From: Chloroflexota bacterium
GTDB lineage: Bacteria; Chloroflexota; Limnocylindria; Limnocylindrales; CSP1-4
Reading direction: 5' to 3'
Assembly (NCBI GenBank): GCA_042408925.1
Contig: JBHOQO010000075.1
Span: 1-61,163 of the forward strand
Length of the DNA stretch: 61,163 nucleotides
Both the position numbers and the translations under genes were made by a program. Under the pieces are notes generated by a model. It saw nothing but the letters and a program-made list of their open reading frames with translations, had not been told where the DNA came from and did no database searches. Below, piece by piece: positions 3,177-37,518 of this stretch (within the stretch, counting starts at the first letter, position 1; each line of letters starts with the position of its first letter).

Positions 3177-4129
3177 CGGTGACGGGCCGCGGACGCGAGG
3201 CCGACGCCTGCCCCCGGCCGGGCGAGCGGTTCGGGAGCGGGCGCCACGAACCGCTCAGGATGTCGGCTCGGCGCCTCCTCCGACCCGGGCGTCGATCGAA
3301 CCGCCGGCGCCCCGTCGAGGGGGAAGCGGGCTCGGATCCGGGTCCCGGCGTCCGGTGCCGACCGGATGTCGAGCTCGCCGCCGACCGCGAGGACCCGGGC
3401 CCGCATCCCCCAGAGGCCGCTGCTCGCTCCGGCGGCGGCGGCGAGGGTAGCTCGGACGACGTCGAAGCCCCGGCCGTCGTCGGCGACGACGAGCTCGAGC
3501 CAGCGCCCGCTGCGCCGGAGGACGACGTCGACGACCCTCGCCCCGGCGTGGCGATCGATGTTCGTGAGGGCCTCCTCGAGGACCCGGTAGCAGGCGGTCT
3601 CGACGGCGTCGGGGAGTGTCGCCTCGAGGCCGGCGCAGCGGATCCTGGCCCGGAAGCCGGCGAGGGCGGCGTGGCGGGCGAGCCCGCTTCGGGCGGCCGC
3701 CTCGAGCCCCAGATCGGCGACGATCGACGGGCGGAGCTCGCGAACGAACGAACGGACGGCTCGGAGCGCCTCGTCGATCTGCTGGAGGCAGACGTCGAGC
3801 GGGGTCCGCGAGCCCTGGGGGAGCCCGTCCCGGCCGAGGGCGACGATGGCGAGTCGGACGGCCGTCAGGGCCTGGCCGACGACGTCGTGGAGCTCGCGGG
3901 CGAGCCGCTGGCGCTCGAGCTCGATCGGCTCGCCGGACGGCGGCGGTGCGCCGGGACCCGAGGGACCGGCTGACGTCGAGGCCGACCGGGCCGCCGGCGA
4001 GCTGCCGGTCGCCGGCGAGCTGCCGGTCGTGCCCTGCGCCGCGGCGCCTCCGTCCTCCGAGCGGTCGGTGGGCGGAACCGACGCTCGGCTCCGCGCACTC
4101 CGTGGCGTTGGCAAGACGGGCCCGATCAC
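3173..4129 (-). CDS. HisKA_3 histidine kinase without recognisable sensor or TM domain
   Basis: ERQRLARELHDVVGQ, EEALTNIDRH, DDGRGF, SSGLWGMRARV. GTG 4129 has a GGAGGAGG RBS; the N-terminus is low complexity. Confidence 0.85.
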   Translation of the reverse strand: MIGPVLPTPRSARSRASVPPTDRSEDGGAAAQGTTGSSPATGSSPAARSASTSAGPSGPGAPPPSGEPIELERQRLARELHDVVGQALTAVRLAIVALGRDGLPQGSRTPLDVCLQQIDEALRAVRSFVRELRPSIVADLGLEAAARSGLARHAALAGFRARIRCAGLEATLPDAVETACYRVLEEALTNIDRHAGARVVDVVLRRSGRWLELVVADDGRGFDVVRATLAAAAGASSGLWGMRARVLAVGGELDIRSAPDAGTRIRARFPLDGAPAVRSTPGSEEAPSRHPERFVAPAPEPLARPGAGVGLASAARHR

Positions 4130-4537: not shown

Positions 4538-5683
4538 GTGGAGGTAGCGGAGGCGATGGGGGCCCAGCCGGTCGAACCCGGTCCGGTCCAGGAACAGCGT
4601 CGGTTCCGGCGTTGGCTCGCCGGGGAGCCGACATGGCTTCAGGCGGCCCTCGATCTGTTCGGCCTGTTCGTCATCGTCCTCACCTTCGCCCAGGCGGGCG
4701 ACCCGGATTTCCTCTTCCACGTCGTCTGGGTCGTCCTGGCGATCGAGGCGTTCCTCTTCGGCCTCCGGGTGACCGCCCTCCGGATCGCGCTGGCGACGGG
4801 CTTCCTCCTCGGCTACGAGCTCGCCGTCGAGGCGGAGCTCGCCCTCGCCGGCCGGCCGCTCGTGCCGCTCGAGTTCTCGATCTGGCCGGTCTCCGAGTGG
4901 CCGCTCATGGTCGTCATCTCGATCATCGTCGCGGTCATGGCCGACCGACTCGCCACGACCGGGCGTCGCTACGCGGGCCTCTACCGGCGGGCGAACGACC
5001 GGCTCCTCTCGGCTCAGGAACAGGAGCGTCGCCGCCTCGCCCGGGACCTCCACGACGGCGTCGGCCAGACGCTGACCGCCCTGACCCTGACCCTCGACGC
5101 CGCCGAGTCGCTCCTCTGGGCCGGCCCCGAGAAGCCGCCGGAGCACGCCCGGGCGGCGATCCGCCGGGCCCAGGAGCTCGCGGCAGCGGCCCTCGAGGAG
5201 ACCCGGGGCGTCGCCTTCCAGCTCCGGCCGGCCCGGCTCCACGAGACCGGCCTCGTCGCCGCCATCTCGGAGCTGGCGCGGATGGCCGGTCGCCCGGTCG
5301 AGGTCGTCGCCGAGCCCCGGCTGATCCGCCTCGGGCTCCTGGCCCCGGAGGCCGAGGTCGAGGCGTACCGGATCGTCCAGGAGGCGCTCGGGAACGCCCT
5401 CCGCCACGCCCGGGCGGAGCGGATCCGGATCGAGGCCGGCCTCGCCGGCGAGCGGCTCGTCGTCCGGGTCGTCGACGACGGCGTCGGGTTCGACCCCGAT
5501 CGGGTCCAGGGGCTGGGGCTCCCGGGGATGCAGGAGCGGGCGGCGGCGATCGGGGCCGTCCTCGCCGTCGTCAGCCGGCCGGGTCGAGGGACGACGGTCA
5601 CCCTCTCGATCCCCCTCGCCGGGCACCCCCGGTCGGTCTCCGGCGAGGTCGTCGACGCCGCGCCGATGGCGGCTCGGACCTAG
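4538..5683 (+). CDS. Membrane HisKA_3 sensor histidine kinase
   Basis: About 4 hydrophobic segments, then ERRRLARDLHDGVGQ, QEALGNALRH, DDGVGFD, GLGLPGMQERA. Start may be ATG 4556. Confidence 0.9.
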   Translation: MEVAEAMGAQPVEPGPVQEQRRFRRWLAGEPTWLQAALDLFGLFVIVLTFAQAGDPDFLFHVVWVVLAIEAFLFGLRVTALRIALATGFLLGYELAVEAELALAGRPLVPLEFSIWPVSEWPLMVVISIIVAVMADRLATTGRRYAGLYRRANDRLLSAQEQERRRLARDLHDGVGQTLTALTLTLDAAESLLWAGPEKPPEHARAAIRRAQELAAAALEETRGVAFQLRPARLHETGLVAAISELARMAGRPVEVVAEPRLIRLGLLAPEAEVEAYRIVQEALGNALRHARAERIRIEAGLAGERLVVRVVDDGVGFDPDRVQGLGLPGMQERAAAIGAVLAVVSRPGRGTTVTLSIPLAGHPRSVSGEVVDAAPMAART

Positions 5684-7396: not shown

Positions 7397-9133
7397 TCAG
7401 CCGAGGGGATGCGCGGCCCGCAGCCGCCCGCCGGTCGTCACCGCGCCCTCCGAGGCCGACGAGACGAGGGCCGCGTACTTGGCGAGGGCGCCGCTCCGAT
7501 AGCGAGGCTCCGGCGGTCGCCAGGCGGCCCGGCGGCGTTCGAGCTCGGCCGGATCGACGAGGAGATCGAGGCGCTTGGCGTCGACGTCGATCTCGATGAG
7601 GTCGCCGTCCTCGACGAGGGCGATCGGGCCGCCGAGGGCGGCCTCCGGGGCGACGTGGCCGATCATGAGGCCGTGGGTCCCGCCCGAGAAGCGGCCGTCG
7701 GTCAGGAGGGCGACCTCGGGCCCCAGGCCCTCGCCGACGAGGGCGGCGGTGACGCTCAGCATCTCCTGCATCCCCGGCCCGCCGACCGGGCCCTCGTAGC
7801 GGATGACGATGACGTCGCCGGGTCGGATCTGCTGATTCTTCACGGCCTCGAAGCAGGCGGGCTCGGAGTCGAAGACCCGGGCCGGGCCGCGGTGGTGGCG
7901 GCGTTCGTGGCCGGCGAGCTTGATGACGCAGCCGTCCGGGGCGAGGCTGCCGCGCAGGATCGCGAGGCCGCCGACCGGCTTGAGCGGTCGTTCGATGGGG
8001 ACGACGACCTCCTGGCCGGGCGTCTCGACGGCGGCGGCGGCGATCTCGGCGATCGTCCGCCCGTCGACCGTCCGGCACGATCCGTGGAGGAGGTTGCGCT
8101 TCAGGAGCTCGCGCATGACGAGGCCGACGCCGCCGGCCTCGTACATGTCCGCCGCCGTGAACCGCCCGCCGGGTTGCATGTCGGCGACGATCGGGGTCCG
8201 GTCGGCGATCCGGCCGAAGTCGTCGAGCTCGAGGGGGACCCCGAATTCGTGGGCGATGGCGAGGAGGTGGAGGACGGCGTTCGTGCTGCCCCCCGTCGCG
8301 GCAACCGAAGCGATGGCGTTCTCGAGGGCCTCGCGGGTCACGATGGAGGACGGCCGGATGTCGTGGCGGACGAGGCTCATCGCGATCTCGCCCGTCCGCC
8401 GGGCGGCCTCGTCTTTCGCCGGGTCCTCGGCCGGGATCCCGTTGAGGCCGGCCGGGCTGAGGCCGAGGAACTCGAGGGCGGTGCTCATCGTGTTCGCGGT
8501 GTACTGGCCGCCGCAGGCGCCGGCCCCGGGGCAGGCGACGTTCTCGATCTCGTAGAGCTCCTCGAGGCTGATCTTGCCGGCCCGGTAGGCACCGACGGCC
8601 TCGAAGACCGTGACGATCGTGGCGTTCCGGCGACCCCGATAGACGCCGGGGTAGATCGTGCCGTTGTAGAGGACGACGCCGGGGACGTCGAGACGGCCGA
8701 GGGCCATCGCCGCGGCCGGGATCGTCTTGTCGCAGCCGACGAGGCAGACGAGGCCGTCGAGGAGGTGACCGCGAACGACGAGCTCGATGCTGTCGGCGAT
8801 GACCTCGCGGCTGACGAGGGACGCCTTCATCCCCTCGGTCCCCATCGAGACGCCGTCGCTGACGGCGATGGTGTTGAACTCCATCGGAGTGCCACCGGCG
8901 GCCCGGATCCCTTCCTTCACGAACTCGGCGAGGCGACGCTGGTTGTAGTTGCAGGGCATCGTCTCGATCCAGCTTGTGGCGACGCCGACGAGGGGCTTCG
9001 AGAGGTCCTCGTCGGTGAAGCCGATCGCCTTGAGCATCGCCCGGGCCGGGGCGCGGTCGGGGCCTTCGGTCAGGGCGACGCTGTGGCGCTTCGCCGGGTC
9101 GGGGGGGCGGTGGTAGGGGTGGGGGTCGGGCAT
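7397..9133 (-). CDS. ilvD: Dihydroxy-acid dehydratase
   Basis: [60 protein letters not shown] 9133. Confidence 0.97.
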
Positions 9134-10041
9134 CGTGGGTCGTCCTCGCGTGGCTGGGCACACTCTGGCGGAGCCGGTCCGGGCCGACTCGGAGGTCGCC
9201 GGCCGACCGCTTCGCGCTGGTCTCGCCTCCAGTCTAGGCCGCGGGACTGTCTTCGGTCACCCGCGATGGTCACGTCGCTCCCTCGTCGGGGAGCCGGGCG
9301 ACGCCGTTGCCCGGCCTGCGCACCGGCCCGGCGTCTGGCAGGCCGCCGTGCGCGCGGGCCCGGGGTCCGCTCGTGTCGTGCCGCTCGAACGAACCAGATC
9401 CCCGCCAACGGTCCTTGCGGTGCGCGGAGCCAGGCCCGAACCGCCCGAGTCCGTGCCGGGAGCGTCGGGCGCAGGACGTCCTCGAAGCGGTCGACCTTGG
9501 CCCGCAGACCGGAGCGGTCCGGGAGGACGACGAGGCGGGCGACGGCGGCCGGTCGCCAGCCCCGCTCGGGCGCCAGGACGGCGACGGCGATCCGCGCCTT
9601 CCGATCGAGGGAACCGAGGAGGTCCTGGAGGTCGACGAGGTCGGACTTCACCTCGACGACGAGGAGCGCCCGAGCCTCGGGATGCCAGGCCACTAGATCG
9701 ATGGCGCCGCGCTCGCCGAAGTGGTTGAAGGTCCACTCGTGGAGGACCTCCCAGCCGAGCGCCCGGAGGATCGCCGTCGCGGCGGCCACGATCTCGGCGT
9801 GGTCGGCATCGAGGAGGCGGTCGAGCTCCGGGCCGCGCCACCGGACTCGAACCTCGAGGGAGGCGCCGAGGGCGCCGAGGACCGCTCGGAGGGCTCGGAT
9901 CGTCGTCGTCTCGAGATCGCCTCGTTCCAGGCGCGAGACTTGCTGCTGGCTCTGCTTCGCTCGCAGCCCGAGCTGGCGCTGGCTCAAGCCGAGCCGGAGT
10001 CGGATGACGCGGATGGTTCTGCCGATGCGGGCGCTGTCCAT
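9070..10041 (-). CDS. XRE-family HTH fused to PD-(D/E)XK-like nuclease domain, with long Arg-rich tail
   Basis: [28 protein letters not shown] (XRE HTH), then GAIDLVAW...LVVEVKS (D...ExK). The tail overlaps the ilvD start by 64 nt. Confidence 0.8.
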
Positions 10042-10200
10042 GGCGCGGAGTGTCGCCGCGGCCCCTCACCGCCCGCGTATCGGGGGTGGATCCCACCTCT
10101 GGCGGCGCACCCTGCCCCGGCTCCCGCCGCGGCCGCCGATCGGCCGCGCTCCCTCTGGATGGACTGCGCTGCAGTCTCATCACGGTCGCTCATCGGCCGC

Positions 10201-10649
10201 GGCACCGCGCCCGGGCCGCCGCTCGCTCCGTCCGGGCCGCGGATCTTCTCGGATACTCACCCGGGTAGTGAACCGCGCAACGCCCGCCTCGTTTTCCACC
10301 CCCGCCACCCCGATGCCGAGCGTGGCCGGTCGGCGGGTCGCCGGCGCGAGCCCGTGCGTTGTCGGCGATTACTCCCAGGGCTGGTACCTCGGAAGATCCG
10401 ACCAGCGGTTCACTACCCCGGGGCGTATTGTGGAAGTTCCGCCCCCTCGGCCCGGCCCGTCACTCGCCCCGCTAGTAGCCTGGAAATTGCGGGCTCGCGG
10501 CCGGCGGGAACGAAACCGACCTCCAGCGGCTCGCAGCCGTCACTCGCCCCGGTAGTAGCCTGGAAATTGCGGGGCCGCCGGCGGGCGACGCCGGTCGTGG
10601 ACCCTCCGGCGGTGCCCGGCGGGCGCTCGTACCGTGGACGGTTCCAGCG
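10201..10649. repeat. Dispersed ~449 bp structured intergenic repeat, copy 1
   Basis: Near-identical to 19528-19975 (offset 9327); first 138 nt identical. Internal 24-nt imperfect inverted repeat (10253-10276 / 10405-10428) and 37-nt direct repeats (10457-10493, 10537-10573). Confidence 0.95.
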
Positions 10650-10654
10650 CGCTG

Positions 10655-11869
10655 CTATCGCCGACGCCCATCCACATCCTCCGGCGCCGGATCCGCGGAG
10701 CTCGCTCCCTCTTCCGCGGCGACCGGCTCTTCCGCGGCGACCGGCTCCGCCGGCGACGTCCCGGCAGGCCCGGCCTCGCGACCGCCCGCCAACCCTCGGA
10801 AGGCGACACGGCGCCGCGGCAGCGTGGCCGCGACGCCTCGGAGCTCGGCCCACGAGAGCTCCCGCTGACCCATGATCCCGCCGGGGCGGAAGACGATGAC
10901 GAGGATGAAGAAGGCGGCCAGGAGGATGCCGCTCATGCCGTAGAGCAGGGTGGCATCCTCGATCCGCCGGAGCGCCTCGGCGATGGCAACGACGGCCACC
11001 GTACCGAGGATGGAACCGTTCACCGATCCCATCCCGCCGACGACGAGCATCGTGATGACTCGGAACGTCAGGTCGAAGTAGAAGACGGTCGGCGAGAAGG
11101 ACGTGATGAAGTGGGCGTAGAGGGAGCCGGCGACCGCCGTGAAGAAGGCGCTGACGACGAAGGCGACGAGCCGGGGTCGAAGGATCGAGACGCCCACGGC
11201 CTGGGCGGCCCACCGGTCGGCCCGCTGGGCGAACATCTCCCGCCCGAGCGAAGAGTGCTTCAGACGCCAGGCGACGAGGACGGTGACGACCGCCCAGCCC
11301 CAGGCCCACCAGGCGTTCGTGTACGGCGTGACGTTCGAGAAGGTCCGCGATCCCCGGGTGAAATCGTCAGCGTTGAAGAGGATGACCCGGACGATGACGA
11401 GGAACCCCAGGGTGGCGACGGCGACGAAGTGACCCGAGAGCCGAAGGAGGACGGCCCCGACGACGAGGGCGAGAGCGGCCACGAGGAGGCTGGCGAGGAT
11501 CGTCGCCGCCAACCAGCCGACCGGGAGCGGTCCGAGCATCTGATCGAAGTGGACGCCTGCCAGCCAGCCGGGAAGGCGCGGTAGGTAATCGGCCTTCTCG
11601 CGCAGGGGGAGCGTCAGGATCGCCGAGATGTAGGCGCCGAGGGCCATGAAGCCGATGTGGCCCAGCGAGAAGACGCCGGTGAACCCCGAGGCCAGGTTCA
11701 GGCTGACGACCAGGATCAGGAAGATCGCGAGGTTGATGGCGAGCCCCTGCCAGAAGGCGAGCCCCGACACGTCGAGCAGGGCGAGGAAGACGCCGAGGAG
11801 GACGAGGAGACCGATCGCCGGTCCGGAACGCCGGTTGCCGGCCGCCCCGCCCGCTGCCGGACGGCTCAC
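10655..11869 (-). CDS. livM: Branched-chain amino acid-type ABC transporter permease (LivM-like)
   Basis: LNLASGFTGVFSLGHIGF, LRLSGHFVAVATLGF, VVGGMGSVNGSILG. Confidence 0.88.
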   Translation of the reverse strand: MSRPAAGGAAGNRRSGPAIGLLVLLGVFLALLDVSGLAFWQGLAINLAIFLILVVSLNLASGFTGVFSLGHIGFMALGAYISAILTLPLREKADYLPRLPGWLAGVHFDQMLGPLPVGWLAATILASLLVAALALVVGAVLLRLSGHFVAVATLGFLVIVRVILFNADDFTRGSRTFSNVTPYTNAWWAWGWAVVTVLVAWRLKHSSLGREMFAQRADRWAAQAVGVSILRPRLVAFVVSAFFTAVAGSLYAHFITSFSPTVFYFDLTFRVITMLVVGGMGSVNGSILGTVAVVAIAEALRRIEDATLLYGMSGILLAAFFILVIVFRPGGIMGQRELSWAELRGVAATLPRRRVAFRGLAGGREAGPAGTSPAEPVAAEEPVAAEEGASSADPAPEDVDGRRR

Positions 11870-12837
11870 GGTGTCTCCTCCCGGGCGGCGCGGAGGATGC
11901 CGTTCGGGCGGAAGAGGAGCATGAGGATCAGGAAGACGAACACGAAGGCGTCCCGGTAGCTCGCGAGCCCGGCGGGGAAGAGGGTCGCCAGGAGGTCGTG
12001 GACCGACGGGGAGACGGATCCCGGCGGCAGGATGTCGGCGATCCCCGCGAGGGCGGTGGGGATGACCTCGAGGAGCCCGAGGGCGTACCCGCCGACCACG
12101 GCCCCGGTGAGGCTGCCGAACCCGCCGATGACCGCCGCGATGAAGGCCTTGAGGACGGGGGTAAACCCCAGGTACGGGTTGATCTGGCCCGCCTGGGAGG
12201 CGTAGAGGAAGCCGGCGACGGCGGCGAGCCCGGAGGCGATGGCGAAGGCCGTCGCCACGACCCGGTTCACGCGGATCCCCATGAGCTGGGCCGCGGTCAG
12301 GTCGTCGGCTGCCGCCTGCATCGACAGCCCCAGGCGGGTACGCGTCACGAAGAGACTGAGGAGGATGAGGAGGATGACCCCGCTGCCGAAGCTGGCGACG
12401 TTCACGCGCGGAATGGTCAGGGGCCCGAGGGCGACGACGCCATCGAGGCCCGGGGGCGCCGGGAAGGCGATCTGGATCGGCTGGCCCGCCAGCCGACTGA
12501 CGAGGAGGACGCCGTTCTCCAGGATCTGGCCGACCGCGAACGAGGTGAGGAGGACGGCGACGTCCGGCGCCCCGCGGATCGGGCGATAGGCGATCCGCTC
12601 CATCGCCAGACCTACCAGGACGGTCCCGGCGACCATGACCACGATGGCGGCCGGTAGCGGGAGACCGGCGAAGAGGGCGAAGGCCGCCAGATAGGCGGCG
12701 ACCATCATGATGTCGCCGTGGGCGAAGTTGATGAGTCGGAGGATCCCGAAGATCATCGCCAGGCCCACGGCCATGAGCGCGTAGAGGCTGCCGGCGCTGA
12801 GACCGTTGACGATCTGCTGGAGAACGTAGACGTCCAT
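11866..12837 (-). CDS. livH: Branched-chain amino acid-type ABC transporter permease (LivH-like)
   Basis: QQIVNGLSAGSLYALMAVGLAMIFGILRLINFAHGD, KAFIAAVIGGFGS. Confidence 0.9.
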   Translation of the reverse strand: MDVYVLQQIVNGLSAGSLYALMAVGLAMIFGILRLINFAHGDIMMVAAYLAAFALFAGLPLPAAIVVMVAGTVLVGLAMERIAYRPIRGAPDVAVLLTSFAVGQILENGVLLVSRLAGQPIQIAFPAPPGLDGVVALGPLTIPRVNVASFGSGVILLILLSLFVTRTRLGLSMQAAADDLTAAQLMGIRVNRVVATAFAIASGLAAVAGFLYASQAGQINPYLGFTPVLKAFIAAVIGGFGSLTGAVVGGYALGLLEVIPTALAGIADILPPGSVSPSVHDLLATLFPAGLASYRDAFVFVFLILMLLFRPNGILRAAREETP

Positions 12838-12840
12838 CGC

Positions 12841-13542
12841 CTAGTGCCCCAGGTACGACTGCTCGATGCGGGGATCGTGTCGGAGCTCGGCCGCCGGCCC
12901 GCTCAGCGTCACCCTGCCGGTCTCGAGGACGTAGACGCGGTCGGCGACGTCGAGGGCGTGGTGGACGTTCTGCTCGACGAGCAGAATCGTCAGGCCCTCG
13001 CCCTTGAGCTCGGCGATCGTCCGGAACACCTGCTCGACGATCAGCGGGGCGAGCCCGAGCGACGGTTCGTCGAGGATGAGAAGCCGTGGGCGACTCATGA
13101 GGGCACGGGCGATGGCGAGCATCTGCTGCTCCCCGCCCGACAGGGTCCCGGCGGCCTGCCCCAGTCGCTCGTGCAGGATCGGAAAGAGCGATTCCATCCG
13201 CTCGATGTCCCGCCGAACCTCGGCCGGGGGCCGCTGGATGCCGCCGAGGATGAGGTTCTCGCGGACTGTGAGCCGGCCGAAGACCCGGCGTCCCTCCGGA
13301 CAGTGGCTGATCCCCATCGCGACGATCTCCTCCGGCGCCGCCCGGGTGATCGCCCGGCCGAGGAACCGGACGACCCCAGCCCGTGGGCGAACGAGGCCCG
13401 AGATGGCCCTGAGCGTCGTCGACTTTCCGGCGCCGTTCGATCCCAGGATCGCGACGAGCTCCCCTTCGGCGACGTCGAGCGACACGCCGTGGAGGGCCCG
13501 GATGCTCCCGTAGGCGACCTCGAGGTCGCGGACCTCAAGCAC
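12841..13542 (-). CDS. livF: ABC ATP-binding protein (LivF-like)
   Basis: GSNGAGKST, HCPEGRRVF, LSGGEQQML, LDEPSLGLAP, VEQN. Confidence 0.93.
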   Translation of the reverse strand: MLEVRDLEVAYGSIRALHGVSLDVAEGELVAILGSNGAGKSTTLRAISGLVRPRAGVVRFLGRAITRAAPEEIVAMGISHCPEGRRVFGRLTVRENLILGGIQRPPAEVRRDIERMESLFPILHERLGQAAGTLSGGEQQMLAIARALMSRPRLLILDEPSLGLAPLIVEQVFRTIAELKGEGLTILLVEQNVHHALDVADRVYVLETGRVTLSGPAAELRHDPRIEQSYLGH

Positions 13543-14350
13543 TGCGAGCCTGCCCGATGTAGGCGGCGATGACGTCCGGGTCGTTGCGGACCGAGGCCGG
13601 GTCCCCGTCGGCGATGAGGACGCCGTGGTCGAGGACCTGGATCCGCTGGCAGAGGTTCATGACCAGTGGAATGTCGTGGGCGACGAGGATGATCGTCAGG
13701 TCGAGCTGGTCCCGGAGCTCGCGGATGAGGGCGAGGAGGTCCGCCGTCTCAGTCGGATGCATCCCGGCGTTCGGCTCGTCGAGGAGGAGGAGCCTCGGCC
13801 GCGACGCGACCGCACGGGCGATCTCGAGCCGTCGCTGATCGCCGTACGAAAGGCTGTGGGCCGGCCGGGCGGCGAGATCGCGAAGGCCGACGAGCTCGAG
13901 GAGCCCCAGGGCCTCGTCGTGGATCCGCTCCTCCTGGCGACGGTAGGTCCTCGTCGAGGCGAGGGTGGCCCAGAGTGAATAGCGATAGCGGCGCTGGACG
14001 GCGACCTTGACGTTGTCGATGGCCGTGAGGTCCCCGAAGAGGCGGATGTTCTGGAAGGTGCGCGCGATCCCCAGCCGGGCGACCTCGGCGGGCGGGCGGT
14101 GGGTGATCTCCCGCCCGTCGAGGTAGATTGCCCCGCTCGTCGGGCGGACCATCCCGGACAGGAGGTTGAACAGCGTCGTCTTCCCGGCTCCGTTCGGGCC
14201 GATGACGCCGTGGATGATCCCCGCCGGGAGGCGCACACTGTAGTCGGACAGGGCGAGGAGCCCGCTGTAGCGCTTCGTGAGGTGGCGAACCTCGAGCAGC
14301 GGCGAACGATCGTCTTCGGGTACGGTCACCACCCGATCCTCCTGGGACAT
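13535..14350 (-). CDS. livG: ABC ATP-binding protein (LivG-like)
   Basis: GPNGAGKTT, ARTFQNIRLF, LSYGDQRRLEIARA, LLDEPNAG. ATG 14350. Confidence 0.93.
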   Translation of the reverse strand: MSQEDRVVTVPEDDRSPLLEVRHLTKRYSGLLALSDYSVRLPAGIIHGVIGPNGAGKTTLFNLLSGMVRPTSGAIYLDGREITHRPPAEVARLGIARTFQNIRLFGDLTAIDNVKVAVQRRYRYSLWATLASTRTYRRQEERIHDEALGLLELVGLRDLAARPAHSLSYGDQRRLEIARAVASRPRLLLLDEPNAGMHPTETADLLALIRELRDQLDLTIILVAHDIPLVMNLCQRIQVLDHGVLIADGDPASVRNDPDVIAAYIGQARSA

Positions 14351-14626
14351 CGGACTCCGGACCGGGGTCGGAGCTCGCCGGGGCTTGGCGTCGGTGGCGC
14401 CGAGCCCGCTCCGGCTCACCCCCGAGCACGACCTCCGCGGTCGGGAGCGTGATGGCGGCGACTATCGCATAGGCGCCGGGGAGCGTCAAACCGATCGGTC
14501 GTCCTAGGGCGGCAGCGTCCCGCCTTACGCGCCGATCCCGGCTACCATCGGATGTCGTCGCCGAGACGGGTCGGGGGGCACCGTCGGCGCCCCCATGATC
14601 CATTGCCCGCCGGGCGGGAGGTGAGG

Positions 14627-15988
14627 ATGCCAACAACCATCGAGGACGTCGTCGCCCGGGCCCGCGAGGACGGGATCCGCCTCGTCCGCTTCCTGTACTG
14701 CGATCCGTCGGGGATCATCCGCGGCAAAAACGTCCACATCGACCTGTTGGAGGCCCGGATGCGGGGCGGCGTCGGGCTGACCCGGGCCCAGAACGCCATC
14801 AACCTCCTGGAACAGCTCGTTCCGGTCGAGGGCATGGAGCCGGTGGGCGAGATCCGGATCGTGCCCGATCCGGAGACCTACTCGCGTCTGCCGTGGGTGC
14901 CACGGACGGCGAGCCTCATCTGCGACCAGCTCGATCACAGCTGGCAGGACTGGGGAGCCTGCTCGCGGAGCTTTCTCAAGCGGGCGATCGCCGCCGCCGC
15001 CGACGCCGGGATTGTCGTCAAGGCGGCCTTCGAGAACGAGTTCTACCTCGCCGAGGAGGTGGACGGCGAGATCCGGCCCTACGGCAACGGACCCGTCTAC
15101 TCGTCGGCCGGGATGGACCGGGTGGCGCACGTCATCGACGACATCGTGGCGGCTCTCGAGGTCCAGGGGATCGTCGTCGAGCAGGCGATCAACGAGTACG
15201 GAGCGGGCCAGCAGGAGATCGCCGTCCGGTACAGCGATGCGCTCCGGGCTGCCGATACCCAGATCAAGCTTCGCGACACCGTCCGCGGTGTCGCCGAGGT
15301 CGGGCACGGCCTCGTCGCGACCTTCGCGGCCAAGCCGTTCGGCGACCAGATCGGCTCGGGGGCCCACATCCACTTCAGTCTCTGGTCCGTCGACGGACGA
15401 GACAACCTCCTCTACGATCCGGCGGCCGGCCCCGGGTTGGTGTCCGAGCTCGGGCGACGCTTCATCGCCGGCGTCCTCGACCACCTCCCGGCCCTCGTCG
15501 CCCTCACCTGCCCCAGCTACAACTCGTACGAGCGGCTGCGGCCCCAGGCCTGGGCCGGCTCGACGGTTTCCTGGGGGCCCGACAACCGGGAGGCGGCCCT
15601 CCGCGTCGTCTCGCCGTTCCGGGGCCGCGAAGAGGAGTCCACGAACCTGGAGCTCAAGACCTGCGATCCCAGCTGCAACCCGTACCTCGCCCTCGGCGGC
15701 CTCATCCACGCCGGTCTCGACGGGGTCCGGCGCGGTCTCGAGCCGCCCGAGCCCGCCCTCCACGACCCGGCGCTCCTCTCCGATGAGGAGCGCCGGCGAT
15801 GCGGGATCCGGCCGCTGCCGGCCTCGCTTCGGGACGCCCTGGCGGCGCTCCAGGCCGACGACGTCCTCTTCCCGGCCCTCGGCGACCTCCTGGGGCGCTG
15901 CCTCGTCGCGGTCCGGAGTGCGGAGGCGGCGGCCTTCGAGGCGATGACCCCCGAGGCGGCCCGGCTTGCCCACCTCCGGATCTTCTGA
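14627..15988 (+). CDS. Glutamine synthetase-like gamma-glutamyl ligase (GlnA4/FluG C-terminal-like)
   Basis: FENEFYL, NEYGAGQQEI, GSGAHIHFSL, WGPDNREAALRV, ELKTCDPSCNPYL. ATG 14627 after GGAGGTGAGG. Confidence 0.88.
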   Translation: MPTTIEDVVARAREDGIRLVRFLYCDPSGIIRGKNVHIDLLEARMRGGVGLTRAQNAINLLEQLVPVEGMEPVGEIRIVPDPETYSRLPWVPRTASLICDQLDHSWQDWGACSRSFLKRAIAAAADAGIVVKAAFENEFYLAEEVDGEIRPYGNGPVYSSAGMDRVAHVIDDIVAALEVQGIVVEQAINEYGAGQQEIAVRYSDALRAADTQIKLRDTVRGVAEVGHGLVATFAAKPFGDQIGSGAHIHFSLWSVDGRDNLLYDPAAGPGLVSELGRRFIAGVLDHLPALVALTCPSYNSYERLRPQAWAGSTVSWGPDNREAALRVVSPFRGREEESTNLELKTCDPSCNPYLALGGLIHAGLDGVRRGLEPPEPALHDPALLSDEERRRCGIRPLPASLRDALAALQADDVLFPALGDLLGRCLVAVRSAEAAAFEAMTPEAARLAHLRIF

Positions 15989-16138
15989 CGCCGGGTCGCG
16001 CCGGCAGGCGCCGGGCAGGTTCCCCCGGGGACGATCCGGTTGCCGTTCGTCGGCTCGGTGCCCGATGATTGGGGCTTCCGGTATCCCCGTCCCGGACGAC
16101 GGGTCTCGGTCCGGGGTGCTCGTCGCAGGAGGTAGGAC

Positions 16139-16834
16139 ATGTTCGCCAACGTCCGCGTCGTCGATCTCACACAGACCCTCCACCCGGGGACGGTCATGTG
16201 GCCGGGAGCCCCGGCGCCGGTGGCGGACACCGTCTTGACCGTCGCCCACGACGGCTTCTACAACCGCCGCCTCACGTTCATGGAGCACAGCGGGACGCAC
16301 TTCGATGCCCCGTGCCACATGGTCGAAGGCGCCGAAACCGTCGACCAGATCGGCCCCGAGCGCCTGTTCTGCCCGGTTGCCGTCATCGACATCAGCGCCC
16401 GGTGCGCCGGCGACCCGGACGCCGTCCTCAGCCTCGAGGAAGTCCACGCCTTCGAGGCGGCCCACGGAACGATCCCGAACGGGGCAGCCGTCTTCTTGCG
16501 GACGGGCTGGGAGACCTTCAACACCGATCCTGCCCGGTACGCGGGTGCTCCGGGGCCCCTCCGCTTCCCCGGGTTCGGCCCGGAGGCAGCCCGTTTCCTG
16601 GTCGAGGAGCGGGGCGCGGTCGGGCTCGGGATCGACACCCTCGGCATCGACCCGGGGTTCGACGCCGACTTCGTCGTCCATCGCCAGATCAGCCATCCTC
16701 GCGGCGTCTGGCATCTCGAGGGGCTGGAGAACCTCTCTGCGCTGCCGCCCCTCGGGGCCTGGGTCGTCGTCGGGGTCCTGAAGACGAAGGACGGGTCGGG
16801 CGGTCCGGCTCGGGTCCTCGCCCTCGTTCCGTGA
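16139..16834 (+). CDS. Cyclase family (kynurenine formamidase-like) metallohydrolase
   Basis: EHSGTHFDAPCH (HxGTHxDxPxH), GIDTLGID, HLEGLENL, GSGGPARVLA. Confidence 0.9.
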   Translation: MFANVRVVDLTQTLHPGTVMWPGAPAPVADTVLTVAHDGFYNRRLTFMEHSGTHFDAPCHMVEGAETVDQIGPERLFCPVAVIDISARCAGDPDAVLSLEEVHAFEAAHGTIPNGAAVFLRTGWETFNTDPARYAGAPGPLRFPGFGPEAARFLVEERGAVGLGIDTLGIDPGFDADFVVHRQISHPRGVWHLEGLENLSALPPLGAWVVVGVLKTKDGSGGPARVLALVP

Positions 16835-16852
16835 CGAGCGCCGGCGGGAGCC

Positions 16853-18124
16853 ATGGCGGGGGTCCCGGCGGGCAGCGACTCGGTGGCTGAGGGCGGCAGG
16901 CGGACCGATCCGCCGGCGGGCCTCGTCGCTACGGGGCCGATCGCCGACGGACCGCGTGCCATCGCCGACGGGCCGCATCCGGAGGTCAATGACCTCCTGG
17001 CGTCGGTCCGGCTTCTCGACCACCACGTCCACACCGTCCTTCGAGGGCGCTTGTCCGCCGAACGGCTCGTCGAGATCCTCAGCGAGTCGAACCGACCCGA
17101 GGCGGCCCGGCGGGCGGGGATGGCAACCCAGCTGGGGGTCGCGGTGCGTCGCTGGTGCGCTCCCCTCCTCGGTCTCGAGGCGGGTGCCGCTGCCGAGGCG
17201 TATCTCGCGCTCCGGGCGACGCTGCCGAACACCGACGTCGCGTCCCGGCTGCTCCCGGCTGCCCGCCTGGCGGGGCTCCTGGTCGACACCGGCTACCCGG
17301 TCGACGACGCGGTGCCCCTAGACGAGCTCGGGGAGCTCGCGGCGGCGCCGGTCCGGGGCGTGCTCCGACTCGAGCGCCTCGCCGAACGCGTCCTGCGGGC
17401 GGCGGGAGCCGCCGCGTTCCCGAACGCGTTCGAGGCGGCTCTGGCGGAGGAGGGCAGGCAGTCCGTCGCCGTGAAGTCGATCGCCGCCTACCGGACGGGG
17501 CTCGACCTCGACCCCGACCCTCCGGGCCGTGCCGAGGTCGTGGCCGCGGCAGGGGCCTGGCTGGCGGCCGTCGAGCAGGGCGCGGCGCCGCGGCTCGCCG
17601 ACCCCGTCATCGAGCGGTTCCTGCTCTGGAGCGCCGTCGAGCTCGGCAAGCCGCTCCAGCTCCATACCGGGTTCGGCGACCCCGACCTCGACCTCCACCG
17701 GGCGAACCCGCTCCTGCTGACGGGGTTCCTCCGGCGCACGGAGGGGCGCCTCTGGGTCCTCCTCCTCCACACGTATCCCTTCCACCGGGAGGCGGCGTAC
17801 CTGGCGCACGTCTTCCCCCACGTCGCCTTCGATATCGGGCTGGCGATCAACCACAGCGGCGTCGGGAGCCAGCTGCTCCTCGCCGAGGTGCTGGAGATCG
17901 CCCCGTGGTCGAAGCTGCTCTTCTCGTCCGACGCGTGGGGGATCCCGGAGCTCCACCTGCTCGGGAGCTGGCTCGTCCGGCGCGGGCTCGCCCGGATCCT
18001 CGGTCGCTGGATCGTCGACGGGGACTGGCAGCTCGACGACGCCCGCCGGTTCGTCGAGCTGCTGGCCGTGGCGAATGCCCGCGAGATCTACGGGCTGGGG
18101 GACGCTGATCTCCGGCTCGCGTAG
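16853..18124 (+). CDS. Amidohydrolase family protein (FluG N-terminal-like)
   Basis: LLDHHVH, KSIAAYRTGL, QLHTGFGD, LLHTYPF, FSSDAWGIPE. Start uncertain. Confidence 0.85.
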   Translation: MAGVPAGSDSVAEGGRRTDPPAGLVATGPIADGPRAIADGPHPEVNDLLASVRLLDHHVHTVLRGRLSAERLVEILSESNRPEAARRAGMATQLGVAVRRWCAPLLGLEAGAAAEAYLALRATLPNTDVASRLLPAARLAGLLVDTGYPVDDAVPLDELGELAAAPVRGVLRLERLAERVLRAAGAAAFPNAFEAALAEEGRQSVAVKSIAAYRTGLDLDPDPPGRAEVVAAAGAWLAAVEQGAAPRLADPVIERFLLWSAVELGKPLQLHTGFGDPDLDLHRANPLLLTGFLRRTEGRLWVLLLHTYPFHREAAYLAHVFPHVAFDIGLAINHSGVGSQLLLAEVLEIAPWSKLLFSSDAWGIPELHLLGSWLVRRGLARILGRWIVDGDWQLDDARRFVELLAVANAREIYGLGDADLRLA

Positions 18125-18235
18125 CCGAGACCGGCGACGCGGAGGCGGGCCGCGGCTCGACGGCTGGCGCCGGGAACGGACGGAGTGCTACGCTACGATG
18201 CCGATCGATCCCGAACATGGAAACGGAGGAGGAGC

Positions 18236-19402
18236 ATGTTCCGTCGCCTCGTTGCCCTCGGCCTGGTGGTCGGCCTCGTCGCTGCGGCATGCAGCGGCAC
18301 CGGTGGGGGGAACACGATCAAGGTCGGCGGCGGGTTCGCGCTTACGGGTGATGAATCAGCGCTCGACCTGCCCGCCGCCAACGGTGCCAAGCTGGCCGTG
18401 AAGGAGATCAATGCGGCCGGCGGTGTCCTCGGCAAGCAGATCGACTTCATCGTCCACGACAGCCAGTACAAGATGGACGTCACCGCCCAGACGGCGAAGC
18501 AGTTCGTCGAGCAAGACAAGGTCGAGGCGATGATCGGTTACACCGACACCGACTCGGTCCTCGCTGCCGGGCCGACGTTCCAGCAGGCGGGGATCCCCTT
18601 CATCAGCGTCGGTGCGACGTCGCCGAAGATCCCTTCCCAGGTCGGCGACATGATGTTCCTCGCTGCCTTCGGTGACAACGTCCAGGCTGCCGCCGGCGCC
18701 GAGTACGCGTTCAAGAACTTCGGCAAGACCGCCTATCTGCTCTGGGACAAGGGCGTGGAGTACACGACCCTCCTGGGTGGCTACTTCAAGTCGCGGTTCA
18801 CGGAGCTGGGCGGCACGATCGTCCTGGAGGACTCGTACGACGACAAGGCCACCGATTTCTCGGCCCAGATCGCCAAGGTCAAGGCCCTGCCCCAGCAGCC
18901 GGACTTCTACTACATCGCGGCGATGCCGTACAACGTCGGTCCGGTCGTGAAGCAGTTCCGCGATGCGGGGCTGACCGGCCCCATCCTCGGCGGTGACGGC
19001 TACGACACGCCCGACCTCGTCAGCGTCGCCGGGGCGGCCTCGGACAACGTCTACTTCTCCACCCACGCGCTCATGGATGCCACGAACGGCACCGACGGCA
19101 TCAAGAAGTTCATCGCGGCCTACAACAAGGAGTACGGCCGCGACCCGGAGAACGCCTTCGCGGCCCTCGGGTACGACACCGTGTACCTGCTCGTCGACGC
19201 CATCAAGCGGGCCGGCTCTACCGACCCCAAGGCGCTGAAGTCGGCGATCGAGGCAACGAAGGACTTTCCGGGGATCACGGGGTCGATCACCTTCAGCGCC
19301 GAGAGCCACGTGCCTCAGAAGGGGGTCACGATCATCGCCGTGAAGGACGGCAAGTTCACCCTCGGCGCCGAGGTCGTTCCGGAGAAGGTTCCGGCCCCGT
19401 AG
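18236..19402 (+). CDS. ABC substrate-binding lipoprotein (LivJ/K fold)
   Basis: Lipobox-like LVAAAC, INAAGGVLGKQI, ALGYDTVYLLVDAIKRAGS, FPGITGSITF. RBS GGAGGAGGAG. Confidence 0.9.
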   Translation: MFRRLVALGLVVGLVAAACSGTGGGNTIKVGGGFALTGDESALDLPAANGAKLAVKEINAAGGVLGKQIDFIVHDSQYKMDVTAQTAKQFVEQDKVEAMIGYTDTDSVLAAGPTFQQAGIPFISVGATSPKIPSQVGDMMFLAAFGDNVQAAAGAEYAFKNFGKTAYLLWDKGVEYTTLLGGYFKSRFTELGGTIVLEDSYDDKATDFSAQIAKVKALPQQPDFYYIAAMPYNVGPVVKQFRDAGLTGPILGGDGYDTPDLVSVAGAASDNVYFSTHALMDATNGTDGIKKFIAAYNKEYGRDPENAFAALGYDTVYLLVDAIKRAGSTDPKALKSAIEATKDFPGITGSITFSAESHVPQKGVTIIAVKDGKFTLGAEVVPEKVPAP

Positions 19403-19453: not shown

Positions 19454-19527
19454 GCTTGTACCTCGACCCGGGTTCGATGCGATGGCTCCAGTCCGAGGAG
19501 CGCACGTTCGCGCAGGCCGCCCGTTCC

Positions 19528-19975
19528 GGCACCGCGCCCGGGCCGCCGCTCGCTCCGTCCGGGCCGCGGATCTTCTCGGATACTCACCCGGGTAGTGAAC
19601 CGCGCAACGCCCGCCTCGTTTTCCACCCCCGCCACCCCGATGCCGAGCGTGGCCGGTCGGCGGGTTGCCGGGCCGCCCCCGCGAATCTTCCTCGGTTACT
19701 CCTAGGGGTGGTAACTCGGAAGATCCGACCAGCGGTTCACTACCCCGGGGCGTATTGTGGAAGTTCCGCCCCCTCGGCCCGGCCCGTCACTCCCCCCGCT
19801 AGTAGCCTGGAAATTGCGGGCTCGCGCCCGGCGGGAACGAAGCCGACCTCCAGCGGCTCGCAGCCGTCACTCGCCCGCCAGTAGCCTGGAAATTGCGGGG
19901 CCGCCGGCGGGCGACGCCGGTCGTGGACCCTCCGGCGGTGCCCGGCGGGCGCTCGTACCGTGGACGGTTCCAGCG
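19528..19975. repeat. Dispersed ~449 bp structured intergenic repeat, copy 2
   Basis: Same orientation as 10201-10649. It differs mainly in a central ungapped block (19666-19714), plus a few SNPs and a 1-nt deletion. Confidence 0.95.
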
Positions 19976-37025: not shown

Positions 37026-37080
37026 GGAACGCACGACACATCGCAGTCGCGCGACCTGGACCGTCGCGCGGCTCACCTCT

Positions 37081-37276
37081 GTGCCTTCTTCCATCCGGAC
37101 TGTACCGTCGGCTCCGGATTCCCACCGGTATCAGTCCCACGGCCGGCTGCGGCTGTGGGAGTCGCGGCGCTCGTCCCCCGCGTGGCTGGCGGAGGCATCA
37201 CCACCGATCGGGAATTGGGGCCACATCGAGAGCCGCAACAAGCTCCCAAAGAGCCCCTCACCCTGCCCCGAAGGCG
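37081..37276 (-). ncRNA. FMN riboswitch (RFN element) with an atypical L2 insertion
   Basis: Minus strand reads GCCTTCGGGGCAGGGTGA..[40 nt]..AATTCCCGATCGGTGGT ... GATACCGGTGGGAATCCGGAGCCGACGGTACAGTCCGGATGGAAGAAGGC. P1 is GCCTTC/GAAGGC; located upstream of ribD. Confidence 0.92.
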
Positions 37277-37518
37277 TATGCACTTATGCGCAGAGCATAC
37301 CATCTGGGTGGGTGGGCTCCGCGGGTTTGGAACGTCTCCTCCTGCTCGGTGGGCAGGCCGGTGGTGCGGCGACCGTCGACACCCACGTGGGGCGTTTTCC
37401 GAGGGGCGCAGTCGCCGTACGAAGCTCCCGGGCTTCGAGCCCGTCTCGCCGGCAATCGCATGGCATGACGCCGACCGCCATACAACCAGAGATGAGTTGA
37501 CGAACGACCCGCTGCTCC

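Follow-up and report, generated by a model that had tools for sequence, protein, structure and literature searches.

How do two copies of one repeat come to be identical over most of their length and yet differ at a third of the positions in a single short block, without any change in length? The question is raised by a contig of 61,163 nucleotides (nt) from a Chloroflexota bacterium (JBHOQO010000075.1, assembly GCA_042408925.1), referred to here as the window, in which alignment identifies two direct copies of a non-coding stretch of ~450 nt, named R:

10200-10649, unstranded: R1, with the A version of the block, between the stop of a livM-like gene (10655) and the start of a helix-turn-helix (HTH) nuclease-like gene (10041).
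19527-19975, unstranded: R2, with the B version of the block, between a substrate-binding-protein gene with a terminator hairpin and the stop of an asparaginase gene (20010).

A sequence-only reading of the window had taken the block for a hypervariable, possibly guide-like insert in a fixed scaffold, and had named gene conversion between family members as the simpler alternative. It is this alternative that matches the population data: R is probably a non-coding foldback repeat resembling REP and BOX elements and MITEs (miniature inverted-repeat transposable elements), with a spacer shuffled by recombination, in an uncultured hot-spring Limnocylindria-like Chloroflexota bacterium.

The contrast between block and scaffold is as sharp as it had first appeared. 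R1 and R2 show no difference over 139 nt (10200-10338), one more than had been claimed; the next 49 positions (10339-10387 against 19666-19714) contain 16 substitutions and no gap, 12 of them within the 24 positions of 10345-10368; and the final 262 nt, described earlier as nearly identical, hold five substitutions and one 1-nt indel (10466, 10500, 10515, 10550, 10552, 10553). Of the 22 differences, 16 are thus concentrated in a stretch of 49 among 450 positions (binomial P 1.5e-11). The C/T polymorphism at 10339 is a separate one that varies independently of A and B, a C being found there in the B-type copies of L091 (a contig of run X14), X13, X16 and X17; what remains as the A/B patch proper is 10345-10387, where 15 of 43 nt differ. 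A coding sequence was considered and rejected. One plus-strand frame is open through both copies, yet the block differences distribute 6/7/3 by phase, without codon periodicity, and frameshifting single-base indels occur among strains at 10291, 10441, 10550, 10571, 10619 and 10624, which together mark R as non-coding.

The block lies within a foldback, the parts of which are the following (coordinates of R1 unless they lie in R2):

10241-10278, plus strand: U1 box, GGATCTTCTCGGATACTCACCCGGGTAGTGAACCGCGC, the left foldback arm and the most conserved part (copy 2: 19568-19605).
10339-10387, unstranded: variable block, A version, containing a degenerate third U-type half-box (U2a) that is largely destroyed.
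19666-19714, unstranded: variable block, B version, containing an intact U-type half-box, AATCTTCCTCGGTTAC.
19685-19724, unstranded: inner hairpin of the B version, ATCTTCC-TC-GGTTAC / GTAAC-TC-GGAAGAT, of a type also found in the paralogues L099, L104 and L106.
10405-10440, minus strand: U3 box, an inverted U copy and the right foldback arm (copy 2: 19732-19767).
10457-10493, plus strand: V unit 1, CCGTCACTCGCCCCGCTAGTAGCCTGGAAATTGCGGG (copy 2: 19784-19820).
10537-10573, plus strand: V unit 2, 80 nt after unit 1 (copy 2: 19864-19899).
10629-10645, minus strand: inverted U-type half-box, GTACCGTGGACGGTTCC, with which the repeat terminates on the right, read from the sequence; it appears to resemble the outer half of U.

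The 24-nt inverted repeat that had been noticed around the block (10253-10276 / 10405-10428) is real, and represents the inner part of a longer imperfect pairing of ~10239-10278 with 10403-10442. The arms of this ~200-nt hairpin are the U box (~36 nt, GGATCTTCTCGGATACTCACCCGGGTAGTGAACC..., including a GTAG), direct at 10241 and inverted at 10405-10440; being imperfect inverted copies of each other, U1 and U3 provide terminal inverted repeats of the kind seen in MITEs. Between them lie short conserved islands (TTTTCCA, CCGAGCGTGGC and GGAAGATC), the degenerate inner U half-box and spacers. The half-box of the B version pairs with an inverted half-box, GTAACTCGGAAGATCC, located just 3' of it, and the hairpin earlier proposed for copy 2 is indeed present in the predicted fold. 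Further to the right the two V units, of 37 nt each, repeat with a period of 80 nt (10457, 10537). The identity of R1 and R2 continues beyond the foldback, for ~40 nt on its left and ~200 nt on its right. Compared with shuffled sequences, the 210-nt unit has the better fold on either strand (z -3.3 to -4.1), whereas the whole 450 nt shows no unusually good fold (z -0.4 and -1.9).

The behaviour of the block among strains was surveyed in the contigs of 21 public metagenome runs aligned to the repeat, together with one fetched contig, L091; all of these sequences are assembled contigs, without read pairs or long reads. The A version is present in X1-X4, X6-X9 and X24, and the B version in X5, X10-X14, X16, X17 and L091. 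X23 contains a single B/A chimera, of type B as far as 10368 and of type A from 10376 onwards, its breakpoint lying in the common TTACTCC. No further version was found in this lineage, and a core with two forms and one recombinant is not hypervariable. Nor is variability confined to the block, and spread-out variation is an outcome that the sequence-only reading had itself named as refuting it: variants are spread along the whole scaffold (10238, 10291, 10296, 10306, 10388, 10394, 10414, 10416, 10430, 10441, 10466, 10472, 10500, 10515, 10550-10553, 10619 and 10624), and one V unit can be lost. A single hybrid V unit is found in X13, X14 (L091) and X17, through an 80-81-nt deletion between the units (window 10491-10571 / 19818-19897). 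Two sets of 3' variants occur combined with either A or B, giving at least six haplotypes, which shows that recombination has taken place within R. The B version is itself stable, the block of L091 differing from that of R2 at one of 49 positions although third codon positions of an adjacent gene diverge by 16.5%. Words of the repeat were found in hot-spring, subsurface, freshwater, groundwater, biofilm and mine metagenomes.

The two loci, moreover, tend to carry the same sequence. In X1, X3, X5, X6, X8 and X23 the repeat is assembled as one unitig of 449-450 nt with ~1.2-2x the depth of its flanks, joined in X1, X3 and X6 to both pairs of flanks, and in X9 the A block is located on a contig with the flank of locus 2. 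The same sequence thus occupies both loci in seven samples (X1, X3, X5, X6, X8, X9 and X23), and since the flanks of the two loci are different, the block does not follow locus, flank or target. The window is the only case seen in which R1 differs from R2. This raises the possibility that strains are naturally A/A or B/B, and that the assembler routed two co-occurring haplotypes through the 450-nt repeat, in which case the A/B polymorphism would be real and the presence of both versions in one genome would not. A strain chimera is conceivable because the copies of the window almost equal two haplotypes of other samples: R1 corresponds to the X1/X2 form except at 10238, and R2 to the X11 form except at 10430 and 10466. 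In addition, the exact B block occurs in X10, where a depth of 3.3 along the A-type stretch may mean that A is present too. However, the window is one contiguous sequence of 61 kb; the C at 19793 of R2 is absent from the contigs of X1, X3, X4 and X10 aligned to R2 and present in copies of X6, X8 and X24; none of the runs showed the R2 combination in full; and gene conversion, if ongoing, must yield heterozygous intermediates. Mis-phasing is a possible but less likely source of the A/B pair in the window.

The age of the repeat becomes apparent in relatives. In L097, whose HTH gene is 89% identical to that of the window, the gene order is DHODH, asparaginase, a 203-nt interval, HTH gene and ilvD, without the genes that separate R1 from R2, and the interval is a homologue of R consisting of U1, the interior and the inner half-box (72% over 199 nt, E 3e-32). 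L098 (HTH gene 87% identical) carries a full homologue, with U1, interior, U3 and V, upstream of the HTH gene. R is therefore an old intergenic element of the site between asparaginase and HTH genes. In a fourth orthologue, L107, the contig breaks 106 nt upstream of the HTH gene. Searches with blastn gave no match of R in 80 ilvD loci of related species, nor at the site in relatives with a substrate-binding protein 93-96% identical. No match was obtained with the V-unit 21-mer and U1 21-mer in genome contigs, with a U1 22-mer in the JGI metagenomes, or, among viral contigs, with a palindrome pattern.

Scanning metagenomes for the U1 box also recovered genuine R-like paralogues in other contexts. 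L100 (70% over 309 nt) has the same order of parts and a foldback of 179 nt, compared with 199 nt, and is located between helicase and aminotransferase genes. L099/L104 and L106, which follow aldehyde dehydrogenase or HtrA genes, contain two or three tandem U units of 50-52 nt facing an inverted U, and the number of tandem units varies from one to three in L099 and L106. X10 and X13 contain further U-box contigs with other flanks. With several copies in unrelated gene contexts (L100, L099/L104, L106), the repeat shows the dispersal expected of MITE- and REP-like families. No recombinase or transposase gene was found near L099, L100, L104 or L106, and no HTH-nuclease gene within 5-13 kb of them. 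The L099-type copies retain the inner hairpin of the B type (CTTCCTCGTTAC..GTAAACCGGAAG), and B is therefore the form typical of the family; over the 17 positions of the half-box, A is closer to L098, which it matches at 12, than to B, which it matches at eight. Four of the eight metagenome matches to the U1 21-mer (L101, L102, L103 and L105) were discarded, three as low-GC chance matches and L101 because it matches R over only 28 nt. An 815-nt contig of X10 (aligned to window 10231-10349) contains a more distant R-like copy with other flanks, whose left arm differs at 13-17 positions, among them 10267 and 10272 A>G; its likeness stops at ~10335-10349, close to where the block starts, and returns with the second V unit.

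These homologues allow the rate of change of the block to be compared with that of its surroundings. Between the window and L097 or L098, divergence amounts to 15-23% in the left scaffold, 29-35% in the block and 28-46% in the right part, so that the block changes only 1.3-2.3 times faster than the left scaffold. The third codon positions of the HTH gene diverge by 20-25% in the same comparisons, and the block, being roughly as divergent, evolves about neutrally. The U1 box, by contrast, shows one difference from L098 (10272) over 38-40 nt and three from L097; at neutral rates, 40 nt without any change would have P ~1e-4 to 1e-5. The pattern between R1 and R2 is of another kind. A and B are 33% apart, as far as either is from L097 or L098, yet their flanks are identical (left 0/98, block 16/49, right 0/53). 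Heterogeneity of rates cannot give this pattern, which is that of a recombination mosaic, either a block of distant origin in a homogenised scaffold or two old copies homogenised except at the block.

The earlier proposal of a fixed scaffold around an insert of constant length can be divided. Conserved boxes do flank a fast-changing block that is ungapped in the window, L097 and L098, its length being kept at the orthologous site and not in the paralogue L100; the guide reading of this layout failed in the tests that were run. According to that reading, R would be transcribed, its scaffold would bind a protein, and base-pairing with a nucleic-acid target would fall to the 49-nt block, in the manner of IS110 bridge RNAs or omega RNAs, with A and B as two programmes. 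The stable foldback, the length-preserved variable block in a conserved scaffold, and a nuclease-like HTH gene adjoining R1 and the orthologous copies in L097 and L098 would suit it. A programmable element is nevertheless difficult to reconcile with a block that has only two alleles and a recombinant, is conserved across strains in its B version, and is shared by differently flanked loci. Neither block has a significant match, complementary or other, in the window, in phages or in plasmids; the best matches in the window are of 12-13 nt (E 0.04-0.14), in agreement with the earlier remark that the blocks have no convincing match in their own flanks. Among these short matches, GGCGCGAGCCCG (10343-10354) is complementary to 19817-19828 (12 nt) and 10490-10499 (10 nt), with E 0.14.

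Evidence for a functional RNA is likewise scarce. The RNA runs do not contain the repeat sequence, promoter and terminator scans of the repeat found neither a sigma-70-like promoter nor an intrinsic terminator, and Rfam 15 gave no match on it, either at the gathering threshold or with E up to 10. In RNAalifold the covariation term for four sequences, few of them independent, was positive (+2.4 for the plus strand and +1.1 for the minus strand), which counts as a penalty. L098 has many broken pairs, the changes of L091 at 10414 and 10416 are uncompensated, and the A version destroys the inner hairpin that the B version and the paralogues retain. The bridge RNA of IS110 is ~177 nt long and is encoded in the non-coding end of the element, beside a gene for a DEDD/RuvC-like plus Tnp recombinase, and covariation with target and donor DNA is a property of its two internal loops (PMC11208160). 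R shares with it only the abstract layout, a conserved structured scaffold with a variable stretch of constant length, and differs in having no recombinase, only two alleles, and no loops complementary to or covarying with flanking target and donor DNA; it is not located in an IS110 end beside a recombinase gene. Similarly, the omega RNAs of TnpB/IscB (IS200/IS605, HEARO) are no better model for an element with neither a tnpB/iscB neighbour nor an Rfam match. No IS110, TnpB, IscB or Cas gene is present near R1, R2 or the paralogues. A programmable guide or target loop is considered extremely improbable.

Three other origins of the sequence pattern were also rejected. A CRISPR mini-array built from V units was dismissed because the 43-nt stretch between these units is the same in both copies except for two substitutions, strains differ only by loss of a unit, and there is no cas neighbour. 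In a diversity-generating retroelement the changes would be adenine-specific, whereas the 16 differences span all four bases (C/T, C/G, G/C, A/C, G/A, T/G and others), and there is no reverse transcriptase neighbour. A small inversion does not explain the block, the reverse complement of B being unlike A by eye.

The gene next to R1 calls for a closer look, together with the genes that separate the two copies:

9370-10041, minus strand: gene for a 224-residue XRE-type HTH protein with a PD-(D/E)XK-like part, with orthologues in relatives that have an R-type element upstream.
10655-19402, both strands: 9-kb module between the R copies, with a livMHFG-like ABC transporter (minus strand) and glutamine-synthetase-like, cyclase, amidohydrolase and substrate-binding-protein genes (plus strand).

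The C-terminal half of the HTH protein has a weak PD-(D/E)XK-like match (UPF0102, E 0.001, below threshold). In the window the open frame continues over 9070-9369 (minus strand) for ~100 codons beyond the homology of the orthologues, overlapping the start of ilvD; this tail is probably not translated as a real domain and represents an artefact of open frames at high GC. The gene was also examined as a mobile autonomous partner of R, and rejected in that role, since in relatives a resident orthologue (48-89% identity) stands next to ilvD. Directly upstream of HTH-gene orthologues that adjoin ilvD, tandem arrays of other kinds are found: in L069 a unit of 60 nt is repeated four times (4540-4790), L098 (395-560) and L092 (276-392) have arrays with the common motif GTGAAGGCC, and L020 has short GGGCGGAGCGCGGC repeats (4640-4700).

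R might then be the cis-regulatory or binding array of the adjacent protein, with U boxes as docking sites, the block as a spacer, and the copy at locus 2 as a by-product of module insertion. In the window as in L097 and L098, the orthologous gene has an R-type element directly upstream, and the more distant orthologues have other repeat arrays in the same position. In L092 (GCA_042408535.1), which like the window has the module between ilvD and asparaginase, R1 is missing together with the 5' two thirds of the HTH gene (L092:393-470 against window 9558-10655), and the 3' remnant of the gene directly abuts the livM stop. However, the paralogues L099, L100, L104 and L106 have no such gene within 5-13 kb, and the quasi-palindrome of the U box (TCAC-N7-GTGA) is a guess as a dimer site. 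An operator array is regarded as unlikely. A bolder version would see in R the cis half, and in the XRE-HTH/PD-(D/E)XK-like family the trans half, of an undescribed Limnocylindria system, in which the stretch between the boxes would be no neutral spacer and would instead act as an exchangeable identity or specificity cassette, A and B being two functional states swapped by box-anchored recombination. This must be rated very improbable.

The preferred interpretation, a foldback repeat with a recombining spacer, would account for these observations as follows. A single ancestral R would have stood between the asparaginase and XRE-HTH/nuclease-like genes. In the lineage of the window the 9-kb module would have come to occupy this site, with one R copy on each side, the second copy possibly arising by single-crossover integration of a circle containing R and the module, or by ectopic copying. 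The block (43-49 nt), made up of a spacer and a decaying half-box, is the stretch under least constraint and drifts at an approximately neutral rate; the boxes are held by selection, most likely through recognition of their sequence by a protein. Identical between diverged copies, the boxes could serve as anchors for homologous recombination and gene conversion, and exchange between anchors would generate the alleles A and B, their recombinants and the concerted evolution of the two loci. The swapped piece would have equal length and sharp borders because the conserved boxes (..GAGCGTGGCCGG.., ..GGAAGATCCGACC..) act as the anchors of exchange.

Several observations weigh against this interpretation. 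The other 60 kb of the window contain no further U or V copies. No convincing direct duplication of a target site was found at the borders of R1 or R2 and no cognate transposase was identified, and for these two reasons the term MITE describes an architecture here and does not imply mobility. A source for the A block was not found, there being no significant match in the window. R diverges by 4.6% between the window and L091, compared with 16.5% at third codon positions of the neighbouring gene (P 1e-7), and consequently the whole element may be constrained or recently exchanged. Finally, one compensatory pair in the long stem (10272/10409, A-U to G-C in L098) leaves room for a function as an RNA hairpin, and on the minus strand several changes are G-U-compatible and thus better tolerated than on the plus strand.

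Dispersed repeats such as rRNA operons and insertion sequence (IS) copies are known to evolve in concert through gene conversion. R behaves in the same way, its paralogous copies being identical within a strain and different between strains, with mosaic haplotypes whose breakpoints lie in common stretches. Unlike those cases, the converted unit is a 450-nt non-coding repeat pair 9.3 kb apart that includes a very divergent 43-nt patch. Among intergenic repeats, R resembles the pneumococcal BOX element and ERIC, RUP and Correia/NEMIS (PMC3049150, PMC3184786, PMC10969869) in being non-coding, intergenic and modular, with no protein encoded inside. As in BOX-type repeats, its complementary end modules form a long hairpin, its internal units vary in number (one or two V; one to three tandem U in L099 and L106), and R-type copies are dispersed between ordinary genes. 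It differs from them in its unrelated sequence, in its occurrence in another phylum with two copies within 61 kb (a count for the window only), in the absence of a detectable target-site duplication, and in the maintenance of one copy at an orthologous site across lineages with 20-25% third-position divergence. With REP, BIME and REPIN elements and their RAYT transposases (PMC3116915), R shares inverted pairs of a conserved box that form hairpins, a box with GTAG, and vertical inheritance combined with homogenisation within the genome; its U box is longer (~36 nt) and its unit is of ~200 nt.

Elements matching the same palindrome pattern were noted in two other groups; ~1-2 chance matches are expected by our own estimate, and homology to R is unproven. 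A Solirubrobacteraceae metagenome-assembled genome (MAG; CAVRTQ010000010.1) contains two large palindromic elements in opposite orientation (L002:4740-4990 and L003:6040-6290), which share a conserved outer scaffold (GGCGAGGAGAACTCG..GGGGTGGTGAGCC / GGCTCACCACCCC..CGAGTTCTCCTCGCC) around wholly different interiors of ~120 nt, each with two sub-hairpins. This pair, whose relatedness to R is likewise unproven, is a cleaner case of a fixed scaffold with a swapped insert than R itself. In Collinsella sp. An307 (L004:4160-4345) an intergenic 13-nt box, GGTAGTGAACCCG, occurs five times, two direct and three inverted, and has the core GGTAGTGAACC in common with the U box.

In the wider neighbourhood, the genes of the window comprise ilvD, the XRE-HTH/PD-(D/E)XK-like gene, livMHFG, the glutamine-synthetase-like, cyclase, amidohydrolase, substrate-binding-protein and asparaginase genes, and DHODH; R2 lies between the substrate-binding-protein gene and the convergent asparaginase gene. 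The IlvD protein has at most 84% identity to those of MAGs labelled Limnocylindrales, Anaerolinea sp. or Sulfomarinibacteraceae, which places the genome in the Chloroflexota. The sole Rfam match above its gathering score in the window is an FMN riboswitch at 37079-37279 (minus strand, 67.4 bits).

The module itself has been found in more than one setting. In relatives with a substrate-binding protein 94-96% identical it adjoins the asparaginase gene, and R is absent on that side. L097 presents a module-free site, with one partial R between the asparaginase and HTH genes (3799-4000). In L093 (substrate-binding protein 93% identical) the same module lies between MacB-like and BioY genes and is bracketed by other repeats, named Q, which form a direct pair of ~330 nt (1172-1545 and 11547-11920), 96% identical to each other. 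Q elements are MITE-like and ~320-390 nt long (L093:1190-1545, L094:3059-3450, L095:630-950, L096:1-422); their 25-nt inverted ends, GGCCAGATTCTCACCGGGTGAACGC (GGCCAGATTCTCACCGGGTGA(A/T)CGC), resemble the U box of R, and a palindrome, CGTTCACCGGGTGAACG, lies in their interior. Three contigs of the Chloroflexota MAG H27_376 carry at least three diverged copies (70-90%). The module bracketed by R in one lineage and by Q in another, together with the module-free site of L097, suggests that it has moved by a repeat-mediated route.

The block thus illustrates that a fixed scaffold with a swapped insert of the same length can arise without a programmable RNA, when boxes act as recombination anchors around a neutral spacer, and it serves as a caution for the search for guide RNAs by eye. 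Its surroundings are of greater interest than the block: a 9-kb module for uptake and catabolism of nitrogen compounds is bracketed by R in the window, while the unoccupied site in a relative holds one copy. In another relative the module lies elsewhere in the genome, between copies of a different repeat built in the same style. Together these observations suggest that a gene module has moved by way of repeats, without a transposase, and they add to the evidence for undescribed families of box-bearing foldback repeats in high-GC Chloroflexota.

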